A DNA stretch of 56,348 bases from Ruminococcus sp. UBA3855 (GTDB taxonomy: Bacteria > Bacillota > Clostridia > Oscillospirales > Ruminococcaceae): positions 7,932 to 64,279 of the forward strand of contig DGHF01000136.1 in the NCBI GenBank assembly GCA_002392545.1, written 5' to 3'. The translations under genes and the position numbers were made by a program. Shown one piece after another: positions 9,713-51,784 of this stretch (positions are counted from its first letter, which is position 1; every line of letters begins with the position of its first letter). The notes under the pieces were generated by a model. The model ran no database searches. It saw nothing but the letters and a program-made list of their open reading frames with translations, and was not told where the DNA came from.

Positions 9713-9760
9713 TTAGTTATTTTCAATTACAATTCATCTGCTTTCTATATAATTACTATC

Positions 9761-9798
9761 AAAAAATCCCCCTGCTCCATGACGGAACAGGGGTTTTT
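9761..9798 (-). terminator. Intrinsic (bidirectional) terminator ending the defence-like cassette
   Basis: CCCCTG...CAGGGG stem extended by CTCC/GGA, flanked by A6 and T5, immediately after the stop at 9801. Confidence 0.7.
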
Positions 9799-9800
9799 GA

Positions 9801-10856
9801 TTATAATACATTCAAATCAAGCAATTCCTGATAAGAGAGACACTGCCAATGGGCAAGCGTGTTTCGGGCAATGCGCATATTTTTTAAACGCTGTAACTCG
9901 GAATCAGAAAGAAATTTATGTGTTCTGCAAATATAATATAACTGTCCGATTTCCAGCTCGTCGGGATTGTCAACCTTTTCACCATTGGAACTGGTGACAG
10001 GGAGATGATATTTCAGACGTTCTTCATACTTTTCAATCAAATCACGGCGGAATTTCTCTAATTTCGGGAATACAAACTTAATCTGTGCTTCCCATACTGC
10101 CATATCCACTTTTTCTTTGAGACTGGTCATTTTAATGCCATTCTCCTGAAATGTCTGGTTTGTGACCTGTACGGGCTTCTGTGCAAGCTCTAACTCTGCG
10201 GAAATCAGCAGTCCAGCGAGTTCAATATTATTGTCTGCGATATTGCTTGCCACTTCCGAAAGATACATTTTCTGCGTACGGTTGCAGGAAAGTGAAGAAA
10301 TCATGGTCATGCACAACATGAGACAGTCATAATCCGTGATGTAATCAGAATACTGCAAGACTTCCACATGTTCCGACGTATGCACCAGTGCATTTTTCGT
10401 CAGGAGAATAAACAGGGCATGCTCACTCTCCGCCGGACAGCTCCGGATATATCTGGAAATCGTATTGAACCAGTTTTCGGAATCCTCTGACGAAATTCCT
10501 GTCAAACATACAAACCGGTGATGAATCGGGGTCAGTGGATTTTTCGCCATAAATTCCTCACGGCTGTTATGTGTTGTGGGCCAGTATTTGTCTCGCTCAT
10601 CTTCACTGCAATAGCGTTTGAACAGGAATTCTCCGGCATCCTTTACACCGGATGCATCATGCACGTCAAAAGTTCTGGTGTCCATCATCTTGCCAAGTCT
10701 CTGACAAAGGGTATCTGTCAGAATGTCGCACCACGGCACTTCGTCCGTAAAATTGAGAATCACAGATTTTCCAAGCTCCAGATATTCTTCTGCATCACTC
10801 AGGAAACGGACGGCATTCGCCATTTTTTCCCACCAAAGTTCGCCTACCATGCTCAT
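9801..10856 (-). CDS. HEPN-motif protein (putative RNase effector) with N-terminal degenerate P-loop-like domain
   Basis: 351 aa. Its ATG overlaps the stop of the upstream giant ORF (ATGA at 10853-10856). The C-terminal RIARNTLAH contains an Rx4H motif (9849-9866) in a helical context. The N-terminal LELGKSVIL looks like a relic Walker A. Confidence 0.6.
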   Translation of the reverse strand: MSMVGELWWEKMANAVRFLSDAEEYLELGKSVILNFTDEVPWCDILTDTLCQRLGKMMDTRTFDVHDASGVKDAGEFLFKRYCSEDERDKYWPTTHNSREEFMAKNPLTPIHHRFVCLTGISSEDSENWFNTISRYIRSCPAESEHALFILLTKNALVHTSEHVEVLQYSDYITDYDCLMLCMTMISSLSCNRTQKMYLSEVASNIADNNIELAGLLISAELELAQKPVQVTNQTFQENGIKMTSLKEKVDMAVWEAQIKFVFPKLEKFRRDLIEKYEERLKYHLPVTSSNGEKVDNPDELEIGQLYYICRTHKFLSDSELQRLKNMRIARNTLAHWQCLSYQELLDLNVL

Positions 10857-13800
10857 GACTTATCCCCCTCTACAAAGTATTCTGCCATGCTCTGGTCAAC
10901 TTCTTCCTGACTGCCAAGCATTTCACGGAAACCTTCTGTTGCAAAACGATACCGCTCGCCCTCTAAGCTCAACACGTTCAAATCCCACATTTCATTCAGC
11001 AATTCTTCCATCTGCTCACGTTTGAGGGAAATCAGTCTCACAATGTTGTATTCATTGGCAACTTTCAGAATTTCATCCAGTGTATAGCCCTTTTCAGAAG
11101 GATTTGTATAATAAAGATATGAGAGAATCAATGCAATGATATGATAGTTACTGTGTCCCTTTTCTTCGACAAACAGGGTGATTTCCAGTTTTTCATTGAC
11201 TTTGTCCATGAAAGATTTATCTGCAAGCACTTTCTTGAAATGGTTTTCTGTTACTTCATAAGACGGGGTATTGATTTCGTTATAGCCTGCATAATCATCA
11301 TTTTTCATTGCTTCCAGCAGTTTCTGACAGTACAGCTGAATCAGTCCAGGGAAATAGTTGGTTTTGGCAAGAATCAGGGAAATGACATTTTCATTGAAAC
11401 GGAATCCCAAATAAGCCAATGTATGTGTCAGGAGCTTCACGGCTTCCGGTCTCTGGAATGGTCTGACAATGACGGAATTCAGATGCACAAGGTTGGAATT
11501 TCCGTGCAGCATTGCTTCACGGTTGTAACGGCTGAGGTTATGCAGACCAGCCATGACAAGCTTGAAACGGTTGGACGGGAGGTTTTTCAGTGCGCCAATA
11601 GGTCTGTTTCCGTCTTCCATGCTGGTCTTGATAAATTCGTCCGCTTCGTCAAGCATCAGCAACAGATAATTGATTCTGGTTGCAGGGTCATTGTCCATAA
11701 GCCGTTTTTTGAGGTGTCCTGCGAGCGTGTCCCAATCATCACAACGACAGGATTCATCAAGAATTCCGGCGATAATCAATTCATTCGAAACAATTTTCGC
11801 AACATCTGTATAATTCAGTCCGAGAACTTCCACAAGGACAGCCCTGTCACCGTTGGCGTTTTTGTCAATGTTGTGCTGTGCCATTTTGAGCAGTGCACTC
11901 TTGCCCAGCTGGCGACCGCCGTAAACAAGGTTTGCACCGTCGGCGGATTCAATCGAGGTGAGTTCTGCTTCACGCCCTGTGAACAGCTCCGGAGGCATTG
12001 TCTGGCTTGACTTCTCCACAAACGGCTGATAATATGCAAAGGGCATTGTAATTGCCATTAACATTTTATTGACCGTATTTGAAGCGTAATGTTTCGCAAG
12101 ATACAGCAATACTACACGGTCAACCACAATAAAGCACTTCGCAAATGTCTTTTCTTCCTTGATTTTTCTGGCAAGCTTTCTTCTTTCGTCCTGATTCAGC
12201 GCATAATCAAGGAATACCATTGTATGCTTGGCTGCGGTGTTGACACTGCGGAACATATCCATTAAACGGTTACAGTCGAAACGTCCATACAGACAAAGCA
12301 CTCTGAAACCTTCTTCCTCGGAAAGGGAACTGAATGCCGGAATCGGGTGGGGGTAATTGATTTTACCAGTCTGTTTCTTGCGGATAACCAAATAAGAATC
12401 TTCATTGTTTCCGTTGTCAGGCGAAACCTGACAGCCCGAAAATCCTAACGAATTCAGGAGCTTTTCAATGCGGTCTGCTCCTGTCGGATTTGCTGCAATC
12501 CAATTATGAATCAGACTGCAACCGCCCTTGACATCCTTCATGGCGTTGTTGGTGAGGTGCTTCATGGCGAATTCAAGATTTTTCTTTCCGACATATTTTG
12601 TAATTGCCAATTCCAGATTGATTTTTGCATCAAAGGAAACACGGTAATTGGTTGCATGTTCATTCATGAAACCATTGAAAAAGCTGAATGGGTCAGTTGT
12701 ATAATTCATGGTTAATTCTTTGGTGTCATGTCTTCTGATGCAGTTGAGCATATATTCTGCAACAGTGTAATTCTGGTCTTGAATATGGGAAGCAATGTCT
12801 TTTTTCGGGTAAACACCGAAATCATATTCGGGCTTGTCAGCAAGTTCCTCCAGCTGTTTCATGAGCCGTTCACCCTTTTCGGCGGAATCCACTGCAATCT
12901 TGTGGCGAATGACTTCCAGCATTCTGACATAGAATCCAAAATCACTTGTCAGCCTTGTGATACGATACCAGTCAAGCGTTAATGCAAGAATATTTGTTTT
13001 TTCGCCGTTGATGTTGGAAAGTGTGCCGTAACTCTCATATAATTCCAGTTCGTCATTGAAATCATGATAGAGTGTTTCAAAACGCTGTTTCGCCTGTTTC
13101 AGACAGTCATTGAACTGCTGGAAATCCTTATGCTTGGCGATTTCTTCAATGCCCATATCTTCACCGTAGGACTTAATCAGCATTGCACTGCGGAAATTAT
13201 GCTTTGATTCTACTTCACTGAGAATTTCAGAAATACGCTCTTCCCATGAAACATGCTTATGCCCTGCATGACGTTCAATTCTGTAAAGAATGTTGAAATC
13301 CTCCCAGCCACAGAATGTTGACTGCAATTCAGGCAGGTACTTTTCATTCAGAAGAATGTCTTCCCCTGCAAGGAAATCAATGAACATATACTTCCTTGCA
13401 CGTGTATCATATGTTCCGTTCATCTTTGCAGAAATTTCCTGAGCGGTTCTATAAATTGCTTCTGTTCCCCAGTCAAAACCATGTTTCTTTGTGTACTGTT
13501 CACAGGATTCAAGGACGCCTTTGAGGTGTTCGGTTATCCGTGGTGCAACTTCCTGATATTTCTCTTTTGCAAAAACATTGTCATTTCTGTTGAAATGTTC
13601 TGCAATCGAAAGCCATTCACAGATACACACCAGCATTTTCCGGATGGTCAGGACAATATTATTCCGCTTTCCGCCCTTGATTTTGTCGTAAGGTCTGGAA
13701 ATATGACGTTTTTCGCTTTGAATGAGGTCACGGGCTTCATCCCAGAAATTATCAATGAACTTGTCAATTTTCTTGCTTTCAATATGTTCAGCAGATACCG

Positions 13801-16567
13801 GTCTGTCATTACGGATGAACAATTCTGAAATGGTATCTCTTACCTCGGCGAAACGTGAAACATCATTTTGTACCACAATGTCCAGACACTGCCGGAGTTT
13901 ACTGCTTTCCGGTGCGAACATGAGTTCACGCATCCTGCGGACTTGTCCCTGACTCTCGTAAACTTCATTTTTCAAATCAACAGCAGTTGCGCAGGTCTTG
14001 GCTTCTGCAATGACCTTTTGCACAACAGCATCACTGGTTCTGTAATCGGCGAAAATATCCATCCCACAGCCTGTCATGGTGCGGAAATCACAAAGTTCGT
14101 CAAGGAGTAATGTCAATGTCGGGAAATCGCTGGAAATTTCGCTGTTTTCCGCCAGCTCCCGAAGGTCTTCAATGGTATAATCCATCACTTCGGAATGATT
14201 GAATAAAGCCGTCATGCAGGATGCCGTCATCAGCTTGTCATTCAGTTCCGGAATAATAGTACTTGTCTCCTGAAAAGCAGAAATAATTTCCGTGCTGAGG
14301 TAGGAATTTTCAGAAAGAGGGCTGTTAAATGCCAGACTGAAAGATTTTTCCACTGCCGGAATTGTCTGAGATACAGCAACCACTTCCCCTGTTTCGTCGG
14401 TATGCTCCTGTCCGGAGGATACTGCCAGCATGGAGGCAGATTTCAGGTAGGTCAGCAGACAATCGAGATGCTGTTTATCAAATGCAAATGCATGTCTGAA
14501 AATATCCTCGTCGGTCATATTTAATGTGTCGAAACCGTCCGTATCCTGATACGCTTCGAATGCTTCACGGAGTGTTTCAGCCGATTCTTCGGAAATCAAT
14601 TCTTGTTCGGAATCATCTTCCTGAATTTCTTCGTCAAAATCTTCCTCATAGGAAACTTTTTCCTCTTCCTCCTGCTTTTTCTTGATTTTTTCGATTTCTC
14701 TCAGGACTTCCCTTTTCTTTTCGCAGGCAGCAGAGAGTTTTGCATATTTTTCAGCGTTTTCATACTCGCCGTTTTCAAAATACACTTCTGCCAGTTCAAT
14801 GTAAATTGTAGTATCTCTCTGCTTATAGCGTTCTGTCATCTTGTTGCGCTTGACAACATCCAGCCAGTCAAGCAACTGACCAATTGCAGAGGGATAGTCT
14901 TTCAGCATCCGGTAACAATGCTCTTTTCCTGCCAGATAATGGAGAATTCTTCCCAATTCATCTGAACCGCAGGATTCCATGAGCATATTCAGCAGGCGGA
15001 TGCATTCAGAATAATTCTGAATTTTCATGTAATATTGGTAAAGCATTTCCAGCGTTTTAGGCTGATGGAAAGACTTGTCAAAATATTCTGCCACAAATTT
15101 TTCCAGTTCGGAACGGTATGTGCCGTTGTCGTCTCCGTTGGAATTCCACAACGCAAGATAACACATGATAATCCGTGAAAATGCCTCTTCTGCGCTGTCT
15201 CCGTCCAGTTTTTTCCGATAAGCCTCAATGGCTTCATCATAACGCTTTTCGGAATAAAGCTGTTTTGCATCTTCCACTTCTTCATTGACCGGCGCAGGGG
15301 CTGTTTTTTTATCCCCGAACCATTGCTGAATGTCCACAGCTACAAAACGACTGAACCGCTTTTCAAACTGGAATACAATCGAAATCGGGGAAAGTGCTTT
15401 ATTGGAGGAAAGTCTTTTCAGCCTTGCCGTCAGTCCGGCATCAGCAACATCTTTCAGCTCAAAAGAATACCGGAGACCAGTTTCTTCTTCTACTTTTCCA
15501 TTGTTTTCAAATATATTATAAGAAACAATTTTACCAAAATATTTTTTACCAATTACAGGGGAAAGATTGTCTATGATAGTAACCTCACTGGGGACAGGGG
15601 GTGCTTCCTGAACCTCTTCTTCGTTTCCGACTTCTGTCATATTGGAAACATGCTCTTCAATTTCCTTGATAACATCATCCATCGGATACCGCAGACGAAT
15701 AACTTTCAGGCATTTTTCAAAATCGCTGATTTCTTCAATTCTCTGTGCACATTCACTGCCGATGAATTTTACCAGATGCAAAATTTCCTCTTTTGCTTCC
15801 TCAGTATAATCTTTTTTCAAGATGTAAGTGATACCAGAAATATCTTTCGTTTCTGAACAAGCTTTTTTCAGAACTTCCGCTGCTTCTGCAAGATAGACAG
15901 AACTTCCTTCTGTCATGTAAAGTGATGAAAACGCAGCAGCAAGAGAATACAAAGGCTTGCTTTCAGATGGTTTCATTTTCAATGCGCCATGATAGGCGGA
16001 AAGATACGCACTCCTTGTATCTTTTGCATAGAAAAATGAAATTGCTGCATCTTGGAAATTTTCCAGCAATAACTGCACCCACGCATAATAATGGTTGACA
16101 CGAGGGTTATAATCCCATTCATTTTTTAACATGATATCCCATATCAGTTCTGCTGCTTCCTGACACTTTGTCACTTCATGACTCTTAAAAAAACTTTGAC
16201 ATTTGTCATGTGAAGAAGTCAAAGCCTTTCTTTCCTCCGGATTCATTGCCTTAAATGTTTCTGCAACAATTTCCTTGGTACAGGTAACTTTTCCGATTTC
16301 CACCTCTTTCGTGCTTTCTTCTGGCTGTGCAGAAATCATTGGTTCTGCAATGGTGTTAATGATAGGCTGAATCATGTTTCCAAAATTCTCTTCTATCATT
16401 GCAATCTGTTCATATTTCAGCGTTGCCAATGACGTAATCTGAACAGAAAGCGTTTCCTTTCCGTCGTTTTCTGACACAATGCCGTCAATCATTTGTCCGT
16501 TTTTCTGCGTGAACCGCACTCTCTCCCCTGTTTTCAGGGCTGACAGTTTCTTTTCTATCAGGTTCAT
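10853..16567 (-). CDS. Giant TPR-repeat / C-terminal P-loop NTPase (Arch_ATPase/ORC-like, STAND-style) protein
   Basis: 1904-aa uninterrupted ORF; AGGAGG RBS 9 nt upstream. FTGREAEL...GGRQLGKS Walker A (11897-11920) and LLLMLDEAD Walker B (11639-11665). TPR-like repeats at about aa 431-615, acidic linker at aa 629-662, beta-barrel-like modules near the N-terminus. Confidence 0.8.
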   Translation of the reverse strand: MNLIEKKLSALKTGERVRFTQKNGQMIDGIVSENDGKETLSVQITSLATLKYEQIAMIEENFGNMIQPIINTIAEPMISAQPEESTKEVEIGKVTCTKEIVAETFKAMNPEERKALTSSHDKCQSFFKSHEVTKCQEAAELIWDIMLKNEWDYNPRVNHYYAWVQLLLENFQDAAISFFYAKDTRSAYLSAYHGALKMKPSESKPLYSLAAAFSSLYMTEGSSVYLAEAAEVLKKACSETKDISGITYILKKDYTEEAKEEILHLVKFIGSECAQRIEEISDFEKCLKVIRLRYPMDDVIKEIEEHVSNMTEVGNEEEVQEAPPVPSEVTIIDNLSPVIGKKYFGKIVSYNIFENNGKVEEETGLRYSFELKDVADAGLTARLKRLSSNKALSPISIVFQFEKRFSRFVAVDIQQWFGDKKTAPAPVNEEVEDAKQLYSEKRYDEAIEAYRKKLDGDSAEEAFSRIIMCYLALWNSNGDDNGTYRSELEKFVAEYFDKSFHQPKTLEMLYQYYMKIQNYSECIRLLNMLMESCGSDELGRILHYLAGKEHCYRMLKDYPSAIGQLLDWLDVVKRNKMTERYKQRDTTIYIELAEVYFENGEYENAEKYAKLSAACEKKREVLREIEKIKKKQEEEEKVSYEEDFDEEIQEDDSEQELISEESAETLREAFEAYQDTDGFDTLNMTDEDIFRHAFAFDKQHLDCLLTYLKSASMLAVSSGQEHTDETGEVVAVSQTIPAVEKSFSLAFNSPLSENSYLSTEIISAFQETSTIIPELNDKLMTASCMTALFNHSEVMDYTIEDLRELAENSEISSDFPTLTLLLDELCDFRTMTGCGMDIFADYRTSDAVVQKVIAEAKTCATAVDLKNEVYESQGQVRRMRELMFAPESSKLRQCLDIVVQNDVSRFAEVRDTISELFIRNDRPVSAEHIESKKIDKFIDNFWDEARDLIQSEKRHISRPYDKIKGGKRNNIVLTIRKMLVCICEWLSIAEHFNRNDNVFAKEKYQEVAPRITEHLKGVLESCEQYTKKHGFDWGTEAIYRTAQEISAKMNGTYDTRARKYMFIDFLAGEDILLNEKYLPELQSTFCGWEDFNILYRIERHAGHKHVSWEERISEILSEVESKHNFRSAMLIKSYGEDMGIEEIAKHKDFQQFNDCLKQAKQRFETLYHDFNDELELYESYGTLSNINGEKTNILALTLDWYRITRLTSDFGFYVRMLEVIRHKIAVDSAEKGERLMKQLEELADKPEYDFGVYPKKDIASHIQDQNYTVAEYMLNCIRRHDTKELTMNYTTDPFSFFNGFMNEHATNYRVSFDAKINLELAITKYVGKKNLEFAMKHLTNNAMKDVKGGCSLIHNWIAANPTGADRIEKLLNSLGFSGCQVSPDNGNNEDSYLVIRKKQTGKINYPHPIPAFSSLSEEEGFRVLCLYGRFDCNRLMDMFRSVNTAAKHTMVFLDYALNQDERRKLARKIKEEKTFAKCFIVVDRVVLLYLAKHYASNTVNKMLMAITMPFAYYQPFVEKSSQTMPPELFTGREAELTSIESADGANLVYGGRQLGKSALLKMAQHNIDKNANGDRAVLVEVLGLNYTDVAKIVSNELIIAGILDESCRCDDWDTLAGHLKKRLMDNDPATRINYLLLMLDEADEFIKTSMEDGNRPIGALKNLPSNRFKLVMAGLHNLSRYNREAMLHGNSNLVHLNSVIVRPFQRPEAVKLLTHTLAYLGFRFNENVISLILAKTNYFPGLIQLYCQKLLEAMKNDDYAGYNEINTPSYEVTENHFKKVLADKSFMDKVNEKLEITLFVEEKGHSNYHIIALILSYLYYTNPSEKGYTLDEILKVANEYNIVRLISLKREQMEELLNEMWDLNVLSLEGERYRFATEGFREMLGSQEEVDQSMAEYFVEGDKS

Positions 16568-16620
16568 TCAAAAATACCTCCTGTTGAAAATATTCCCACC
16601 AAATATAGTGAGACAATTTT

Positions 16621-16649
16621 ATTATACACTATTCCAACAAAAAAGTCAA
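16621..16649 (-). promoter_or_regulatory. Sigma-A-type promoter of the giant NTPase gene
   Basis: Minus strand TTGACT, 17-bp spacer, TATAAT, lying between the WYL gene stop (16710) and the giant ORF start (16567). Confidence 0.6.
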
Positions 16650-16675
16650 TATTAAGTTCAGAAAATTTATTTCTA

Positions 16676-16685
16676 TTTGCGCAAA
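16676..16685. promoter_or_regulatory. Perfect 10-bp palindrome, candidate operator
   Basis: TTTGCGCAAA, about 27 bp upstream of the -35 of the giant-gene promoter. Function is inferred only. Confidence 0.25.
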
Positions 16686-16709
16686 ATTCAACAGAGAGTT
16701 ATTTTTTCA

Positions 16710-17684
16710 TCAAACTTCACCATATAAACGTTTCATCTTTTCGATTTCCGTTTTCATCTCATCAACGAAACTTTGAGGGGAAAGCACTTTCACCCATGCC
16801 CCTTGTGAAAGGAGATACATCATCAGCCCACGACCATTATTCACATCAGCTTCAATGGTGTAGGTTCTTCCGTCCTTGGATGTGATTTTTGCAGTGGGGA
16901 GGCGGTCAAGAATCGCCTGCACTGACAAGCCCGTGAATTCAAATACTACCTTGATTCCTTCCCCCGGAAACATGAACTGACTTTTTTCCCGAAGACTGCC
17001 TTCATCAAAATCGTATTCCGGCGCAAGGGTGAAACGATTCCGGTTTTCCGTGATGGAGAAAATACGGTCAATCCGGAAATAGCGGGGGCTGAAAGTTTCG
17101 TCATCTTCCTGATAGGCAATCAGGTAAAAATAATATTCACTGAACATAATCGCAAGGGGCTTGATTTTGCGCTTGATTTCGCTCCTGTCCATCTTGAAAT
17201 AAGAAATCGTGATAATGTGTTTGTCTTCGATTGCCTGCACAATCCGCCATAAATTATCAATCAAGGAATGACAGTCCATTTTCACCTCATTATAATGGTA
17301 GACTTCTTTCCGGATTAGGTTGTCAAAACTTGTCCTGTTTTCAATGGTGCTGAAATTTTTGAGTTTTGAAATCAGGTTCAGAATCTCATGCTTCGAAAAG
17401 CAACGGCTTCCCAGCAATACTTCAATAATTGCAAAAAGTTCCTTGTTTTTGAGAAATTCGTCATTTGTGAGAATATAGGACTTGTCACGGTGAGAATAGG
17501 TCAGTTCTGCATTCTGCATCAATTCTCTGTGTTCGGTCAGGAATGACTGAATTTCTGTCACGTCACGGCTGATACTTTTGGTTGAAACATGGTATTCCTC
17601 AGAAAGCTTTTTCGGGGAAATTTTCTCTCCCTTCAATGCTCTGAAAAAAATCTCAAGAATACGCTCATTTTTCTGATGTTCCAC
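16710..17684 (-). CDS. WYL-domain transcriptional regulator (HTH-WYL-C-terminal extension; BrxR/CapW-like architecture)
   Basis: 324 aa with a GTG start and an AAAGGAG RBS 9 nt upstream. N-terminal HTH (ISPKKLSEEYHVSTKSISRDVTEI). WYL-type core (ITISYFKMDR...YYFYLIAYQEDDETFSPRYFRIDRIFSI). Confidence 0.8.
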   Translation of the reverse strand: MEHQKNERILEIFFRALKGEKISPKKLSEEYHVSTKSISRDVTEIQSFLTEHRELMQNAELTYSHRDKSYILTNDEFLKNKELFAIIEVLLGSRCFSKHEILNLISKLKNFSTIENRTSFDNLIRKEVYHYNEVKMDCHSLIDNLWRIVQAIEDKHIITISYFKMDRSEIKRKIKPLAIMFSEYYFYLIAYQEDDETFSPRYFRIDRIFSITENRNRFTLAPEYDFDEGSLREKSQFMFPGEGIKVVFEFTGLSVQAILDRLPTAKITSKDGRTYTIEADVNNGRGLMMYLLSQGAWVKVLSPQSFVDEMKTEIEKMKRLYGEV

Positions 17685-17719
17685 ATTGTACAGCTCCTTT
17701 CTTTATCTGATATAATTTT

Positions 17720-17728
17720 ATTATACCA
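17720..17728 (-). promoter_or_regulatory. Possible extended -10 promoter for the WYL regulator gene
   Basis: Minus strand TGGTATAAT with no good -35. Confidence 0.3.
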
Positions 17729-17807
17729 TCCGACCCCGACATATGGGTGTCCGTTCATAAAAAATTTACAATTGTATTTCGAAACAGAAACGAAAGCTGT
17801 ATTTTGC

Positions 17808-17836
17808 TTGACGTTTCGGGCAATTTGTGATATACT
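17808..17836 (+). promoter_or_regulatory. Sigma-A-type promoter for the lipoprotein gene
   Basis: TTGACG, 17-bp spacer, TATACT with TGn (TGATATACT). Confidence 0.6.
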
Positions 17837-17855
17837 GATATTGGAGGTGTTACGA

Positions 17856-19358
17856 ATGAAAAAATTATCATGGGTCATATTGCTGGCAATCTTTCTGACG
17901 GGTTGCGGTGCTGAAACGGAAACAGAAATTTCCGTTCCTGATGGAAATATTCAGCAGGAAACCGCCGTTGCTTTCAATATCGAAAACCCTGCGCCTGAAC
18001 CTGAAACCGAACCCATCAAAGAATCTGAAACAATTGACATTCCCCTTGAAACGCTCGAAAATCCCCCTGCTCCTGCCGTTCTGGATTTTGCCGATTTCGA
18101 CAGCATTCCGGATGAGAAAATTGCTGAACTCGCTCTTCATGACTTTTCAACAACGGAATTTATCGAAAGTTATTATGTCCCACGCATTGACCGGAATTAT
18201 CAATTGAAATTTGTTCCCGAAAATGAGGACTTTGAAAGCTATCTTTCCAACCCCGAAAATTTTACCATTGAAACCAGTTCAAATTATACCATTGAAGCCG
18301 TCAACCCCTATGACGAAAATGATTTGTATTCCATTTTTGAAGTACATTATACTGACGATTCCCAAGGGGCGATTGAATACCAGCTCTTTCCTAAAAATTT
18401 CCGGCTCTCCGGAAATGATTATGCCATCTATACGGGCGGTATGGATGAAGAATCCGTCCTGCTCAATTTCGACCTCATCAGCCAGAATCAGCATATCATC
18501 TGGAGAAATTTCAGGGACAACCCCGAAATCAAATGCATTGCCTATGATTTTTACAGCGTGACAAGGCTTGACAATGATACTGCTGAATTGGGATGGTACT
18601 GCTATCTGATTGACAGAGATGATTTCATGGTATCGCTCCGACCGGAATGGAATTTGAAACGAAATGTGAATCTTTCTGGTCTTCCTGAATCTGTACCGGA
18701 TGACGATTCCCAAAGTCCCAACATCCCTGATGATGCCGAAATTTTCACCGATATTCAGCTCTATGCAAGTCAATCAGAAATTGTGATTGGCGAAGACCAA
18801 ACCAACGACAATGAAGTGATTTGGTATGCGAAAATTCCTGTTGACTGTAACCCTGAATCAGTCGCTTTGATTGATGAAAGCACCGGCGAAAAAGTCGCTG
18901 ATTTGTATGACCTCGCAGATTATGAAAAATACGGTGATACCATTCAGGGCGATTCTATCTATAACTGCCGTTTCAAGGTGAATATTGACATTGACACAAA
19001 CCCCGATGTTTCAGAGGATGCACATTATCATTATTATGCGGAATTCGCTGACAACAAAGGCATTCACCGTTCCGAACCGTTCCAAATCTGGGTACTCGAA
19101 CAGTTCACCGACAAGGAATTAAACGATATAGAAATTGTAGACAAAGCCGTTTCTGAAATGCTCAATTCCAATGATTTCCAGAAACTTTCACCCGAAAAAA
19201 GAGTGAAATTCGCTGAAAAGCGTCTGCATGAACTCGAAGAACAAGACTATATCAAACAAGGCAGTATCCGTACTTATGAGCTGAATATTTCGTTTGAGTA
19301 TTCGTGCGGAATTTCCGGCGGAATGATGCCTTACCAATTTGATGAAAATGTCGATTAA
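17856..19358 (+). CDS. Secreted acidic lipoprotein of unknown function
   Basis: 500 aa from ATG 17856, with a GGAGGTG RBS. Signal peptide plus lipobox MKKLSWVILLAIFLTGC. The 17589 extension runs through the promoter and has no RBS. Confidence 0.7.
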   Translation: MKKLSWVILLAIFLTGCGAETETEISVPDGNIQQETAVAFNIENPAPEPETEPIKESETIDIPLETLENPPAPAVLDFADFDSIPDEKIAELALHDFSTTEFIESYYVPRIDRNYQLKFVPENEDFESYLSNPENFTIETSSNYTIEAVNPYDENDLYSIFEVHYTDDSQGAIEYQLFPKNFRLSGNDYAIYTGGMDEESVLLNFDLISQNQHIIWRNFRDNPEIKCIAYDFYSVTRLDNDTAELGWYCYLIDRDDFMVSLRPEWNLKRNVNLSGLPESVPDDDSQSPNIPDDAEIFTDIQLYASQSEIVIGEDQTNDNEVIWYAKIPVDCNPESVALIDESTGEKVADLYDLADYEKYGDTIQGDSIYNCRFKVNIDIDTNPDVSEDAHYHYYAEFADNKGIHRSEPFQIWVLEQFTDKELNDIEIVDKAVSEMLNSNDFQKLSPEKRVKFAEKRLHELEEQDYIKQGSIRTYELNISFEYSCGISGGMMPYQFDENVD

Positions 19359-19401: not shown

Positions 19402-20397
19402 TTATTTTGCAAGAATTTTTTCGATTTTGTCAATTTCCTGCTGTGTGAAGTCAAGATTCCGGATACATCCGGCATTTTCGGCGATTTGTTCCGGAGAACT
19501 TGCACCAATTAAAACCGTTGTCACGGCTGGATTACGGAGAATCCACGCAAGTGCCATCTGTGAAAGAGTCTGCCCTCTCTCCTGTGCAACGGCATTCAAT
19601 GCACGGAGTTGATTCAGCATTTCCTCTGTGAGCTGTTCTCTGAGCCATGTATTTCCCTTTCCGATTCTGGAATTTTCAGGGATACCGTTCAGATAGCGTC
19701 CTGTCAGAAAGCCTTGATACAACGGCGAAAATACGGCGATTCCTTTACCATTTTCATGGCAATATTTGTCAAGTCCATCTGATTCAATCCATCTGTTGAG
19801 CATGGAATAAGACGGCTGATTCACAATGAATGGTGTTTTCAGCTCCTTAAAAATAGCGGAAATTTCAGCGGTCTGTTCGGTGTTATAATTAGAAATACCC
19901 ACATATAAGGCTTTCCCCTGCTTCACTGCATGGTCTAAGGCGAGGGCGGTTTCTTCGAGAGGGGTTTCAGGGTCGAAAATGTGATGATAGAAAATGTCAA
20001 CATATTCCAGCCCCATCCGCTTCAAAGATTGGTCAAGGGATGCAAGTAAATATTTCCTTGAGCCGTTCATTCCCCCATAGATGCCTTCCCACATATCATA
20101 GCCAGCCTTTGTGGAAACACAGATTTCATCACGGTAAACCCCTAAACCGTTTTTCAGGATTTTTCCGAAATTCTCTTCGGCTGAACCATTATAAGGATGT
20201 CCGTAATTATTCGCCAAATCAAAATGAACAATTCCCAAATCAAACGCTTTCCGGCACATCGCCTCCGCATTCGCAAAGCTGGTATCTGCTCCGAAATTCC
20301 GCCACATTCCAAGCGAAATCACAGGCAGTTTCAAGCCCCATTTCCCACAACGTCGATAAATCATACTGTCATAGCGTGTTTTGTCTGCAAGATACAT
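19402..20397 (-). CDS. Aldo/keto reductase (YghZ/Gpr-like)
   Basis: 331 aa. AKR pattern: YRRCGKWGLKLPVISLGMW..., FDLANNYG, and GLEYVDIFYHH. Confidence 0.85.
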   Translation of the reverse strand: MYLADKTRYDSMIYRRCGKWGLKLPVISLGMWRNFGADTSFANAEAMCRKAFDLGIVHFDLANNYGHPYNGSAEENFGKILKNGLGVYRDEICVSTKAGYDMWEGIYGGMNGSRKYLLASLDQSLKRMGLEYVDIFYHHIFDPETPLEETALALDHAVKQGKALYVGISNYNTEQTAEISAIFKELKTPFIVNQPSYSMLNRWIESDGLDKYCHENGKGIAVFSPLYQGFLTGRYLNGIPENSRIGKGNTWLREQLTEEMLNQLRALNAVAQERGQTLSQMALAWILRNPAVTTVLIGASSPEQIAENAGCIRNLDFTQQEIDKIEKILAK

Positions 20398-39392: not shown

Positions 39393-40619
39393 TCAGATTT
39401 TCTTGAGTGCGATAACAGCATTATGACCGCCGAAGCCCAGATTAGAAGAAATTGCTCCGTTGATGGGGGTCTTTACAGCAACATTAGGAGTGTAATCAAG
39501 GTCAAGTTCGGGGTCTGGTTCGGCATAGTGGATAGTCGGGGGAACAGTATTTTCCTGCATTGCCAGAATACAAGCAATCGCTTCCACAGTACCAGTTGCG
39601 CCGAGCATATGACCAGTCATGGACTTTGTAGAGCTAATGTGCAGTTTCTTTGCATCCTCACCGAAAGCCTTTTTAATGGCAGTTGTTTCGGTCTTGTCAT
39701 TGAGAGGAGTAGAAGTGCCGTGAGCATTGAAATACACTTCGGAAAGGTCAATGTCACCAAGTCCCTGATATGCTTCCAGAATTGCCTTTGTGACATAGGT
39801 TGCATCAGGGTCGGGAGCGGTTACATGATGAGCGTCACAGGTTGAGCCATAGCCCACAACCTCAGCCAGAATTTTCGCCCCTCTTGCAACAGCGTGTTCG
39901 TATTCTTCCAATACCACAACGCCAGCACCTTCCGCCATGACGAAACCGCTTCTGTTTTTGTCGAACGGACAGCAAGCTGTTTCGGGGTCATTGGAATTAG
40001 AAAGAGCCTGACAATTTGCGAATCCTGCAATTGTCAGCGGTTCAATTCCGGATTCTGCACCGCCACAAATCATGGCATCTGCATAACCGTGAAGAATGGT
40101 ACGATAACCCTCACCGATTGCCGTTGTACCTGTTGCGCAGGCAGTCGAAACCGCCACACAAGGGCCATTTGCTTTGAATTCAATGGCAATGTTTCCGGCA
40201 GCGATGTTATAAATCATCTTCGGCACAAAGTACGGAGAAACTTTTCTAGCACCCTTTTCCAGCAGGTTCTTGTGGTCGGTGCAGAGTGTATTGATACCGC
40301 CGATACCTGAACCAAAGCAGACACCAATTCTGTCGCTTTCCATTGTCCCTGCAAGTCCGCTCTGTTCCATTGCCTCTCTGGAAGCAACCAGCGCAAATTG
40401 TGTAAAGGGGTCAATTTTGCGGGCAACTGCTTTTCCAAGGATTGCATTGGCATCAAAATTTTTCACTTCCCCTGCAACCTGTGATTTCATTTCGGATGCA
40501 TCAAATTTTGTAATGGGAGCGATACCATTTTTACCTGAAAATATCGCTGTTCTGAACTCCTCCACATTATTGCCGACAGGAGTCACAGCACCCATTCCAG
40601 TAATGACGATTCTTCTCAT
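39393..40619 (-). CDS. fabF: 3-oxoacyl-ACP synthase II
   Basis: 408 aa. MRRIVITGMGAVTPVG, active-site AVSTACATG, and NAHGTSTPLND / GHMLGATG. Confidence 0.9.
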   Translation of the reverse strand: MRRIVITGMGAVTPVGNNVEEFRTAIFSGKNGIAPITKFDASEMKSQVAGEVKNFDANAILGKAVARKIDPFTQFALVASREAMEQSGLAGTMESDRIGVCFGSGIGGINTLCTDHKNLLEKGARKVSPYFVPKMIYNIAAGNIAIEFKANGPCVAVSTACATGTTAIGEGYRTILHGYADAMICGGAESGIEPLTIAGFANCQALSNSNDPETACCPFDKNRSGFVMAEGAGVVVLEEYEHAVARGAKILAEVVGYGSTCDAHHVTAPDPDATYVTKAILEAYQGLGDIDLSEVYFNAHGTSTPLNDKTETTAIKKAFGEDAKKLHISSTKSMTGHMLGATGTVEAIACILAMQENTVPPTIHYAEPDPELDLDYTPNVAVKTPINGAISSNLGFGGHNAVIALKKI

Positions 40620-40835
40620 GCGTGATATCGTTACTGAAAACCAATAAAAACCATAGGCTTTTATATTATTCCTTGTTCAGCGTGTCCGTGATAACGTTTG
40701 GCATGACACTCCCAAGGCGTAAATTCCCCTATCAGGGTATATGCTGTCAGTCGCAAAAAAATACCACTGACAGCACCAGTAACATTTCCTTTCTTACTGA
40801 ATTTGCCAAAACAATATTGATATAGTCAAATAGAA

Positions 40836-46406: not shown

Positions 46407-46413
46407 GTTGGAG

Positions 46414-46487
46414 CGTGCCTGAAGGGACTCGAACCCCCGACCTACTGGTTCGTAGCCAGTCACTCTATCCAGCTGAGCTACAGGCAC
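46414..46487 (-). tRNA. tRNA-Arg (anticodon ACG)
   Basis: Reverse complement reads GTGCCTGTAGCTCAGCTGGATAGAGTGACTGGCTACGAACCAGTAGGTCGGGGGTTCGAGTCCCTTCAGGCACG. It folds as a cloverleaf with anticodon loop CTACGAA. CCA is not encoded. Confidence 0.9.
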
Positions 46488-51708: not shown

Positions 51709-51784
51709 TGGCAGGGGCACCAAGATTCGAACTCGGGACACGTGGTTTTGGAGACCACTGCTCTACCAACTGAGCTATACCCCT
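51709..51784 (-). tRNA. tRNA-Trp (anticodon CCA)
   Basis: Reverse complement reads AGGGGTATAGCTCAGTTGGTAGAGCAGTGGTCTCCAAAACCACGTGTCCCGAGTTCGAATCTTGGTGCCCCTGCCA. It folds as a cloverleaf with anticodon loop CTCCAAA. The 3' CCA is encoded. Confidence 0.9.

Follow-up and report, generated by a model that had tools for sequence, protein, structure and literature searches.

A two-gene operon, equipped with a promoter and a terminator of its own, lies on the minus strand of the 56,348-nt stretch of Ruminococcus sp. UBA3855 DNA analysed here (the window; contig DGHF01000136.1, positions 7,932 to 64,279), and it encodes a 1904-aa protein with a predicted signalling nucleoside triphosphatase (NTPase) domain, which we call the giant, and a 351-aa partner whose C-terminus is probably a HEPN domain. 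The pair is widespread in gut Clostridia, and we lean, with a little better than even confidence, towards reading it as a conflict or defence system in which the NTPase gates a HEPN RNase in the manner set out below. An earlier note on the same DNA had proposed a three-gene abortive-infection cassette that also took in the gene for a WYL-family regulator, directly upstream; the functional unit is the two-gene operon and not three genes.

The two-gene operon and its upstream neighbour

The operon is made up of four elements:
10853-16567, minus strand: open reading frame (ORF) of the 1904-aa giant NTPase, core component 1
9801-10856, minus strand: ORF of the 351-aa partner, core component 2
16621-16649, minus strand: promoter of the giant gene, TTGACT-17-TATAAT, matching the consensus at 11 of 12 positions
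9769-9793, minus strand: intrinsic terminator ending the two-gene operon, an 11-bp stem with 7 G-C pairs followed by a T-run

All three co-directional minus-strand ORFs of the proposed cassette were found at exactly the coordinates that the earlier note had given, and the ATGA overlap that it saw between the giant stop and the partner start (10853-10856) is real, with a GAGGGGG ribosome-binding site preceding the partner ATG. The giant promoter that it described is also present and is the second-best consensus match of the region, and the strong intrinsic terminator (9793-9769) lies 3′ of the 351-aa gene.

Tabulating the neighbourhoods of related loci bore out the expectation that large and 351-aa homologues would travel together. 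In 89 of 90 loci a hidden Markov model (HMM) of the partner family matches the ORF directly downstream of the giant on the same strand, and the sole unpaired locus ends at a contig edge. The spacing from giant stop to partner start is –4 in 32 of 83 loci and falls between –8 and +14 in 76 of the 83; the pair is usually translationally coupled across loci. Among the homologues recovered were 13 full-length giants and 79 partners, and in all nine giant-homologue neighbourhoods that we inspected (36-75% identity) a gene of ~350 aa follows directly downstream. Clustering of all flanking ORFs found no third gene common to more than a handful of the 90 loci, in keeping with the variable flanks that had been predicted, as no gene beyond the pair is common to the loci.

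The upstream region of the window holds four further features:
16710-17684, minus strand: WYL-family regulator gene, 324 aa, GTG start
16676-16685, palindrome with no strand assigned: TTTGCGCAAA, in a segment found only where the WYL gene is and window-specific in the alignment with the syntenic relative L001
16609-16627, minus strand: 19-nt direct repeat, copy 1, spanning the –10 box of the giant promoter
17708-17726: 19-nt direct repeat, copy 2, spanning a putative –10 box 5′ of the WYL gene

The 324-aa protein has the helix-turn-helix (HTH), WYL core and C-terminal extension attributed to it, with Pfam matches to WYL (6e-13, 49 bits against a cut-off of 21.8) and WCX (2.9e-8, 34.4 against 23.9) above the gathering cut-offs and a weak HTH_11 match (5e-4, 20.2 bits) slightly under its own; PADLOC WYL models match it at 1e-28. 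WYL regulators occur in BREX and CBASS loci, and in its HTH-WYL-WCX order and its position directly upstream of the operon the protein resembles BrxR and CapW, from which it differs in that its association with the module is found in this genome only. A phmmer search found no homologue of it in any of the 90 related loci, and the gene is absent from the called genes of the nine inspected giant-homologue neighbourhoods. The relative L001, whose giant is 75% identical, has the same ECF-riboflavin, Fe-hydrogenase, lipoprotein and Suf neighbours, and alignment of its intergenic DNA with that of the window shows the giant promoter kept in both while the WYL gene and its own promoter form an indel present in the window only. 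Because it is conserved in the WYL-less L001, the giant promoter belongs to the two-gene module; and because the pairing is strict, this promoter is kept and the WYL gene is an indel, the unit is a two-gene operon.

The WYL gene is thus a lineage-specific addition and not a core component, although, inserted directly upstream in this genome, it may encode a putative repressor of the operon. A three-gene cassette with the WYL repressor as an integral, co-evolving component would draw on the adjacency and common orientation of the gene in the window, on the 19-nt repeat common to both promoters, and on the known presence of WYL regulators in BREX and CBASS loci together with the strong PADLOC WYL matches. 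With a WYL homologue in none of the 90 related loci, however, and with an intact giant promoter in the syntenic L001 where the WYL gene is missing, we consider it very improbable, and as a general statement it is effectively refuted.

The palindrome TTTGCGCAAA, which the earlier note had taken for a plausible operator, is present, but we dropped the operator role: with at most one mismatch allowed, the window holds 8 matches where 5.1 are expected, a count also reached in 16 of 100 shuffles and no different from chance. The two copies of the 19-nt repeat, found in a repeat search, are 89% identical, lie 1099 nt apart and flank the WYL indel. They would make a better operator candidate than the palindrome, and may represent either an operator common to both promoters or a mark left by the WYL insertion.

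The true start of the 589-aa ORF listed at 17589-19358 (plus strand) most likely lies near 17859, which gives the protein a lipoprotein signal peptide, MKKLSWVILLAIFLTGCGA; the ORF so defined (17859-19358, plus strand) has no Pfam match, and a 500-aa counterpart stands divergently beside the giant gene in L001. An aldo-keto reductase gene (19402-20397, minus strand) is absent from the otherwise syntenic L001 and is a second small indel by the cassette.

The family is no rarity; it is large and phylogenetically broad. A profile of the C-terminal 1200 residues of the giant, searched against 1.84 billion cluster representatives (50% identity clusters), matched 2872 clusters at E ≤ 1e-3 and 1774 at E ≤ 1e-30. 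Among the best 150 of the 2872 matches nearly all have most or all of a C-terminal module of ~1170 residues, and the N-termini ahead of this constant module range from ~350 to 1100 residues. Relatives occur in at least 578 species, as counted in a one-genome-per-species scan of a 185,579-genome collection, and the species among the matches listed include both Clostridia (Oscillospiraceae, Ruminococcus, Lachnospiraceae, Butyrivibrio, Eubacterium, Dorea and Hungatella) and Negativicutes (Selenomonas, Phascolarctobacterium and Quinella). Cultured carriers include R. callidus MSK.21.81, E. ramulus ATCC 29099 and B. proteoclasticus P6B7. We also note a full-length pair (47% identity) on a 185-kb contig (L019, CAYWPN010000003.1) of a metagenome-assembled genome labelled ‘uncultured Alistipes sp.’ (Bacteroidota), which reflects either a transfer between phyla or a mistake in binning or labelling.

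Anatomy of the giant and its partner

The two proteins divide into the following regions, given in the order of translation:
16370-16567, minus strand: giant aa 1-66, small beta-rich N-terminal module, kept in 32 Oscillospirales relatives
15308-15565, minus strand: giant aa 335-420, cold-shock-domain-like OB fold, from a PDB profile search
14708-15280, minus strand: giant aa ~430-620, tetratricopeptide repeats (TPRs), from TPR_12 in homologues and PDB profile matches
12446-14365, minus strand: giant aa 735-1374, all-helical core of ~640 residues in an AlphaFold2 model, conserved family-wide
12038-12433, minus strand: giant aa 1379-1510, alpha/beta domain before the NTPase, from strand/helix alternation in the model
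11288-11992, minus strand: giant aa 1526-1760, STAND/Arch_ATPase-like P-loop NTPase, from Walker motifs and profile matches
10856-11287, minus strand: giant aa 1761-1904, conserved C-terminal tail (YFPGLIQLYC, DYAGY, ELNVL), from the alignment; a putative winged helix in the earlier note
10137-10856, minus strand: partner aa 1-240, AAA+-fold base and helical lid lacking Walker A and B, from AlphaFold2 and Foldseek
9804-10124, minus strand: partner aa 245-351, probable HEPN domain with RNTLAH at 9849-9866, from motif, Pfam matches and model

On translation, the Walker A stretch GGRQLGKS (11897-11920), the Walker B stretch LLLMLDEAD (11639-11665) and RNTLAH are encoded where the earlier note had put them. 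Across 26 diverse members G1550, G1551, G1555 and K1556 of Walker A are invariant and R1552 and Q1553 nearly so, and in Walker B D1640 is invariant and E1641 nearly invariant. Pfam matches to the domain in distant members are to ATPase_2 (Arch_ATPase, 6e-9) and AAA_22 (1e-5), and in close homologues to AAA_16 (10 of 13), AAA_14 (9 of 13) and nSTAND_NTPase4 (4 of 13). The stretch ELFxGRxxEL...GGRQLGKS and the TPRs give a match at E 1e-7 to the STAND protein PH0952 (6mfv), and the match to its nucleotide-binding oligomerisation domain (NOD) covers only ~40 residues around the P-loop. Judged by these motifs and matches, the giant carries a STAND/Arch_ATPase-type signalling NTPase. Its layout is not the STAND NOD order of nucleotide-binding domain, helical domain, winged helix and C-terminal sensor repeats; it is inverted, with the TPRs N-terminal to the NTPase and only ~145 residues after it.

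The TPRs are weak in the giant of the window, while TPR_12 matches all 13 close homologues (best 5e-10), and profile matches in the PDB to this region are to LapB, to the TPRs of Hop/STIP1 and to the TPR sensor of PH0952. Together with the invariant Walker A lysine and Walker B aspartate, this sustains the description of the giant as a large P-loop NTPase with TPRs. Profiles of close homologues of giant and partner, searched against PDB sequences, returned TPR noise only. Ahead of the repeats, the two best PDB matches to aa 335-420 with a 36-sequence profile are the cold-shock proteins 2lss (E 0.0053, full length) and 2kcm (E 0.006); G345 is nearly invariant in diverse members, and the aromatic RNP motifs of the OB fold are not conserved. 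For aa 1-66 there are weak PDB profile matches to NusG-KOW, NusA-S1 and LSm4 (E 0.15-1), so that this module is possibly, and tentatively, an SH3/KOW/Sm-like barrel. An acidic linker (aa ~620-700) follows the TPRs.

Between linker and NTPase the giant resembles no protein of known fold that we could find. For aa 735-1524 AlphaFold2, given 39 diverse sequences, produced a model with a predicted local distance difference test (pLDDT) score of 86.9, for which Foldseek found no significant relative in the PDB (best E 0.43) or in BFVD (best E 0.09). Within the model the alpha/beta domain has highly conserved motifs in the alignment (IPAFGS, EGFRVLCLYG, VLLD, ERRxLARKIKE and DRV), is without a P-loop and is retained in distant plasmid-borne relatives. 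Nuclease (PD-(D/E)xK/Mrr-like), Toprim, PIN and TIR identities were considered for aa 1340-1510 and rejected, and no effector function can be assigned to the alpha/beta domain because Foldseek found no relative in either database.

The partner was modelled with higher confidence (AlphaFold2, pLDDT 93.5). Its best Foldseek matches are CTF18-RFC, RFC small subunits, ORC/Cdc6, TRIP13, RuvB, the NB-ARC domains of NLRs (NRC2/3) and EfAvs5, with E values of 9e-5 to 3e-3 over 290-430 aligned columns and TM-scores of ~0.3-0.4. Neither GK[ST] nor hhhhDE occurs among its conserved columns, and the loop after strand 31-36, at the P-loop position, reads TDEVPW; no Walker A or B residues are conserved, and aa 1-240 are a pseudo-ATPase. 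A paralogous relationship of the partner to the giant ATPase was tried and rejected (hhalign probability 0.1%).

The C-terminal part of the partner is probably a HEPN domain. All of 34 homologues have R331, N332, A335 and H336 of its RNTLAH motif unchanged, and ~97% of 86 partners drawn from distant taxa have RNx[LI][AS]H. In Pfam scans of the 34 homologues five families of the HEPN clan come up repeatedly (HEPN_Swt1 in 14, HEPN_RiboL-PSP in 7 with a best value of 6e-5, DUF4145 in 6, HepT-like in 5 and HEPN_Apea in 1), which favours the HEPN reading that the earlier note had drawn from the Rx4H motif and its helical context. The partner of the window itself has no Pfam match, and a PDB sequence-profile search gave it none. 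In the model aa 246-347 are all-helical with a beta-hairpin insert, and the whole-protein Foldseek list is dominated by AAA+ proteins. RNTLAH sits at the C-terminal end of helix 318-335, before a loop and a short last helix, which agrees with the description of the HEPN Rx4-6H motif at the end of helix-3 (PMC3710099). Thus, of the proposal that the 351-aa protein is an RNase-type effector, the C-terminal HEPN-type motif stands, while the idea that it is an RNase alone does not, as an AAA+ fold that lacks Walker motifs takes up its first ~240 residues.

The HEPN-like domain could instead be no nuclease at all, with RNxLAH serving for binding and the pair being a heteromeric AAA+/STAND machine of an active and an inactive subunit for structural, loading or remodelling work on nucleic acids. 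Over ~360 columns the three-domain layout of the partner can be aligned with that of RFC small subunits and of ORC/Cdc6, the HEPN Pfam matches are sub-threshold, and non-catalytic HEPN domains exist (PMC3710099, Table 1). Yet that both R and H of Rx4H, with the polar N after the R, persist almost universally even in very distant partners is the signature of catalytic HEPN domains, and the fusion of HEPN to a P-loop kinase-like domain in an Azospirillum relative (see below) fits RNA-end chemistry better than clamp loading, so that we hold this explanation to be distinctly unlikely.

Proposed mechanism, genomic context and rival readings

In the NTPase-gated HEPN RNase that we favour, the variable N-terminus of the giant (here the possible beta-barrel, the cold-shock-domain-like OB fold and the TPRs) would be the sensor for a trigger, either RNA or a foreign protein, and the C-terminal ~1170 residues would act as a nucleotide-dependent switch and oligomerisation engine. 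The pseudo-AAA+ domain would first dock the partner on the NTPase of the giant, in the way of the inactive subunits in clamp-loader and ORC assemblies. Trigger binding and ATP-dependent oligomerisation would next gather two or more HEPN domains, which generally have to dimerise to be active, a composite HEPN active site would thereby be completed, and cleavage of cellular and/or invader RNA would finally lead to growth arrest of the infected cell, so that the module may serve in abortive infection. The elements of this scheme have precedents, since HEPN domains are dimeric RNases in many defence and toxin systems and architectures that combine HEPN, STAND, TPR and S1/cold-shock domains have been noted computationally (PMC3710099), and STANDs oligomerise when activated (PMC6468293).

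Several observations weigh against a defence role, beginning with the surroundings of the pair. The 140 nearest neighbours at ~70 chromosomal loci match 185 Pfam families, none of them in more than 4 proteins, and are heterogeneous and mostly housekeeping (GGDEF proteins, response regulators, MetRS, ArsR). Strong PADLOC matches among them are few (one PDC-S05 gene, one type IV restriction endonuclease and mad genes), and the defence-island enrichment that the earlier note had named as support is not clear among these neighbours, judged by raw counts. The defence-island signal is weak or absent because the neighbours are mostly housekeeping genes and convincing defence-family matches are few. 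In two species whose giants are 75% identical the pair has the same housekeeping context, which points to vertical inheritance over that timescale, and no homologue was found in 50,697 phage genomes. To these must be added that the HEPN-clan Pfam matches of the partners are all below the gathering thresholds, with a marginal best E value; that in PADLOC-DB v2.0 (catalogue to 2023) the partner has no match and the giant only noise at E 0.03-0.2; that the link to a WYL regulator holds at one locus only; and that the partner-giant interaction, the oligomerisation and the RNase activity are things that we infer.

The same context suits a module outside defence, in which the cold-shock domain and TPRs sense an endogenous cue (RNA state, nutrient or stress) and the NTPase gates the HEPN RNase for transcriptome adjustment or dormancy. 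The housekeeping, heterogeneous flanks with no clear defence-island signal, the synteny between two species and the wide, vertical-looking spread in Clostridia and Negativicutes are all consistent with an RNA-processing or stress-response role, as are the RNA-type modules of the giant (cold-shock-like and possibly KOW/Sm-like) and the precedent of Las1, Ire1 and RNase L, HEPN RNases that act in RNA processing (PMC3710099). It fits less well with the patchy distribution (hundreds of species, at least 578, out of a collection of 185,579), with the high variability of the N-termini, with copies that lie on plasmids, next to genes for conjugation or recombinases, or in contigs classed as viral, or with the adjacent regulator of a defence-typical type in this genome, and we think it rather unlikely.

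Six IMG/VR contigs carry the pair, and the genes nearby, there and at the plasmid loci, encode among others serine recombinases, a relaxase, PcfJ, prophage tail proteins, baseplate proteins, Mrr and helicases. In two Oscillospiraceae loci (L005, 5344-7163; L008, 2823-4672) the pair stands directly downstream of genes for a ClpP-like protease and a TraG/VirD4-type coupling protein, and in L008 it is also upstream of IS66 TnpB and transposase genes; these ClpP/TraG and IS66 neighbours suggest carriage on an integrative conjugative element.

Plasmid searches with tblastn recovered more distant relatives, 24-29% identical, of the module of alpha/beta domain, NTPase and tail from other phyla, among them Salinibacter, Thiodictyon, Euzebya, Brasilonema, Streptomyces and Azospirillum. 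Salinibacter pSR118 encodes a 1927-aa ‘ATP-binding protein’ and, 3 nt after it in the same pairing, a 377-aa protein, which matches the partner HMM at 1e-15 and has a C-terminal RMRNRIAH. The Azospirillum oryzae plasmid NZ_CP054617.1 (L102, 1-11049) encodes the same module in a protein longer than 3100 aa whose annotation reads ‘RNaseH domain-containing’. Next come a 525-aa protein, in which a homologous HEPN domain (RRGMAH) is joined to a C-terminal P-loop kinase-like domain (GPTGAGKS), and a DUF6035 protein; here the same engine has been elaborated in another way. A 2289-aa relative on the Brasilonema octagenarum plasmid pBOCT2 (L103, 2600-12859) has much of the helical core as well (profile positions 258-1191), with the gene of a 1094-aa helicase downstream in place of the HEPN partner.

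Copies on plasmids and near integrative-conjugative-element, insertion-sequence and recombinase genes would also be expected of a selfish toxin or addiction module, in which the HEPN partner is a toxin restrained by the giant and the pair persists by post-segregational killing or as element-stabilising cargo; HEPN domains are common toxins of toxin-antitoxin systems (PMC3710099), and the tight translational coupling of the pair fits as well. A 1900-aa multi-domain NTPase with invariant catalytic motifs, however, far exceeds what an antitoxin needs, the gene order and sizes are unlike those of HEPN-MNT or other known toxin-antitoxin pairs, and most copies are chromosomal and set amid housekeeping genes, which together make an addiction module quite improbable.

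Relation to known systems and significance

Searches of Pfam, NCBIfam, PADLOC and PHROGs gave no family assignment for either the giant or the partner, and PADLOC v2 gave 23 distant family members sporadic matches only (E > 3e-4). That the genes belong to no named system (Avs, Septu, Gabija, Lamassu, BREX, Zorya, PrrC/RloC, ApeA and others), as the earlier note had held, agrees with this lack of a PADLOC v2 match. No matching description was found in the literature searched, which included the DefensePredictor, HEC (embedded-defence) and Avs8-21 papers.

The closest in domain vocabulary are the Swt1-type HEPN proteins with STAND ATPase, TPR and S1/cold-shock OB domains and the N-terminal HEPN-STAND(-CSD) proteins of Bacillus cereus (Anantharaman et al. 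2013, PMC3710099), both of them computational predictions, and HEPN_Swt1 is the commonest Pfam match of the partner (14 of 34). The module described here is set apart from them in that the HEPN domain is on a separate, coupled protein fused to a pseudo-AAA+ domain, and in that the NTPase is C-terminal, after a helical core of ~640 residues without a known relative. With Avs and other antiviral STANDs it shares a large signalling P-loop NTPase that is accompanied by TPR-type repeats and by an effector of the nuclease type, with presumed activation by oligomerisation and induced proximity, and the fold search with the partner retrieves NLR NB-ARC domains and EfAvs5. Avs proteins, however, are single polypeptides in the order effector-NTPase-sensor, whereas here the order is sensor-novel core-NTPase with the effector in trans, and there is no PADLOC Avs match.

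PrrC and RloC likewise use an NTPase-regulated HEPN RNase as abortive-infection effector, but as fusions of an ABC/Rad50-type ATPase to HEPN of ~400-800 aa, and PrrC depends on a type I restriction-modification partner; here there is neither an ABC ATPase nor a restriction-modification partner. The DUF499/BrxC-type STAND/ORC-Cdc6 ATPases with an N-terminal HEPN (Hma/‘BREX-related’, PMC12839542) resemble the pair in combining a STAND/ORC-like ATPase with a HEPN endoRNase, and BREX loci resemble the window in their WYL (BrxR) regulators. These Hma systems need a methyltransferase and a helicase-nuclease, whereas neither is found in any of the 90 loci, and there is no DUF499 or BrxC match in Pfam or PADLOC; membership of the BREX-related/DUF499-Hma group was rejected because no methyltransferase or helicase is associated.

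Clamp loaders and ORC-Cdc6 assemblies with dead subunits provide the best structural matches of the partner (RFC small subunits, ORC/Cdc6), which, being without Walker motifs, recalls the delta/delta′ or Orc subunits that join active ATPases. The TM-scores reach only ~0.36-0.41, however, the partner has a third domain with a HEPN motif, and there is no link to replication genes.

The logic of a signalling NTPase combined with a HEPN RNase is therefore known, from PrrC/RloC, the HEPN-STAND proteins predicted in 2013, DUF499-HEPN and Avs-type NLRs. The composition, as far as sequence comparison and structural models can tell, is not known from elsewhere, with no PADLOC v2 match, an inverted domain order, an effector in trans on a predicted pseudo-AAA+ domain and a central stretch of ~790 residues for which no structural relative was found. 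More tentatively, and at somewhat short of even confidence, we put the pair forward as the founding example of a large undescribed family of immune receptors, in which a swappable sensor and a helical core of new fold would be combined with a pseudo-AAA+ adaptor recruiting a coupled HEPN RNase, and in which the C-terminal engine would be reused in other phyla with other partners.

Elsewhere in the window a match to the Rfam RAGATH-18 RNA (40669-40717, minus strand; 46.0 bits against a gathering cut-off of 44.9) lies upstream of the ORF at 39393-40619, and there are genes for tRNA-Arg(ACG) (46413-46487, minus strand) and tRNA-Trp(CCA) (51709-51784, minus strand).

The corrected boundaries have a practical consequence, as the unit to clone is the two genes with their own promoter and terminator (~9760-16700), with the WYL gene optional, which is simpler and avoids repression. 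If the pair is an immune system, it would be a widespread and so far invisible addition to the defence repertoire of gut and rumen Firmicutes (at least 578 species, 2872 clusters), hosts that have been little sampled by a defence discovery that has concentrated on E. coli and Bacillus. A catalytically dead AAA+ domain that serves as the adaptor coupling an RNase to a signalling NTPase would be a new mechanistic element, and the large helical core without a structural relative would be a second. If the founding-family reading put forward above is right as well, the family would constitute a new modular defence superfamily, abundant in the Clostridia of the human and ruminant gut, with other partners elsewhere, such as HEPN with a kinase-like P-loop domain in Azospirillum and a helicase in Brasilonema.

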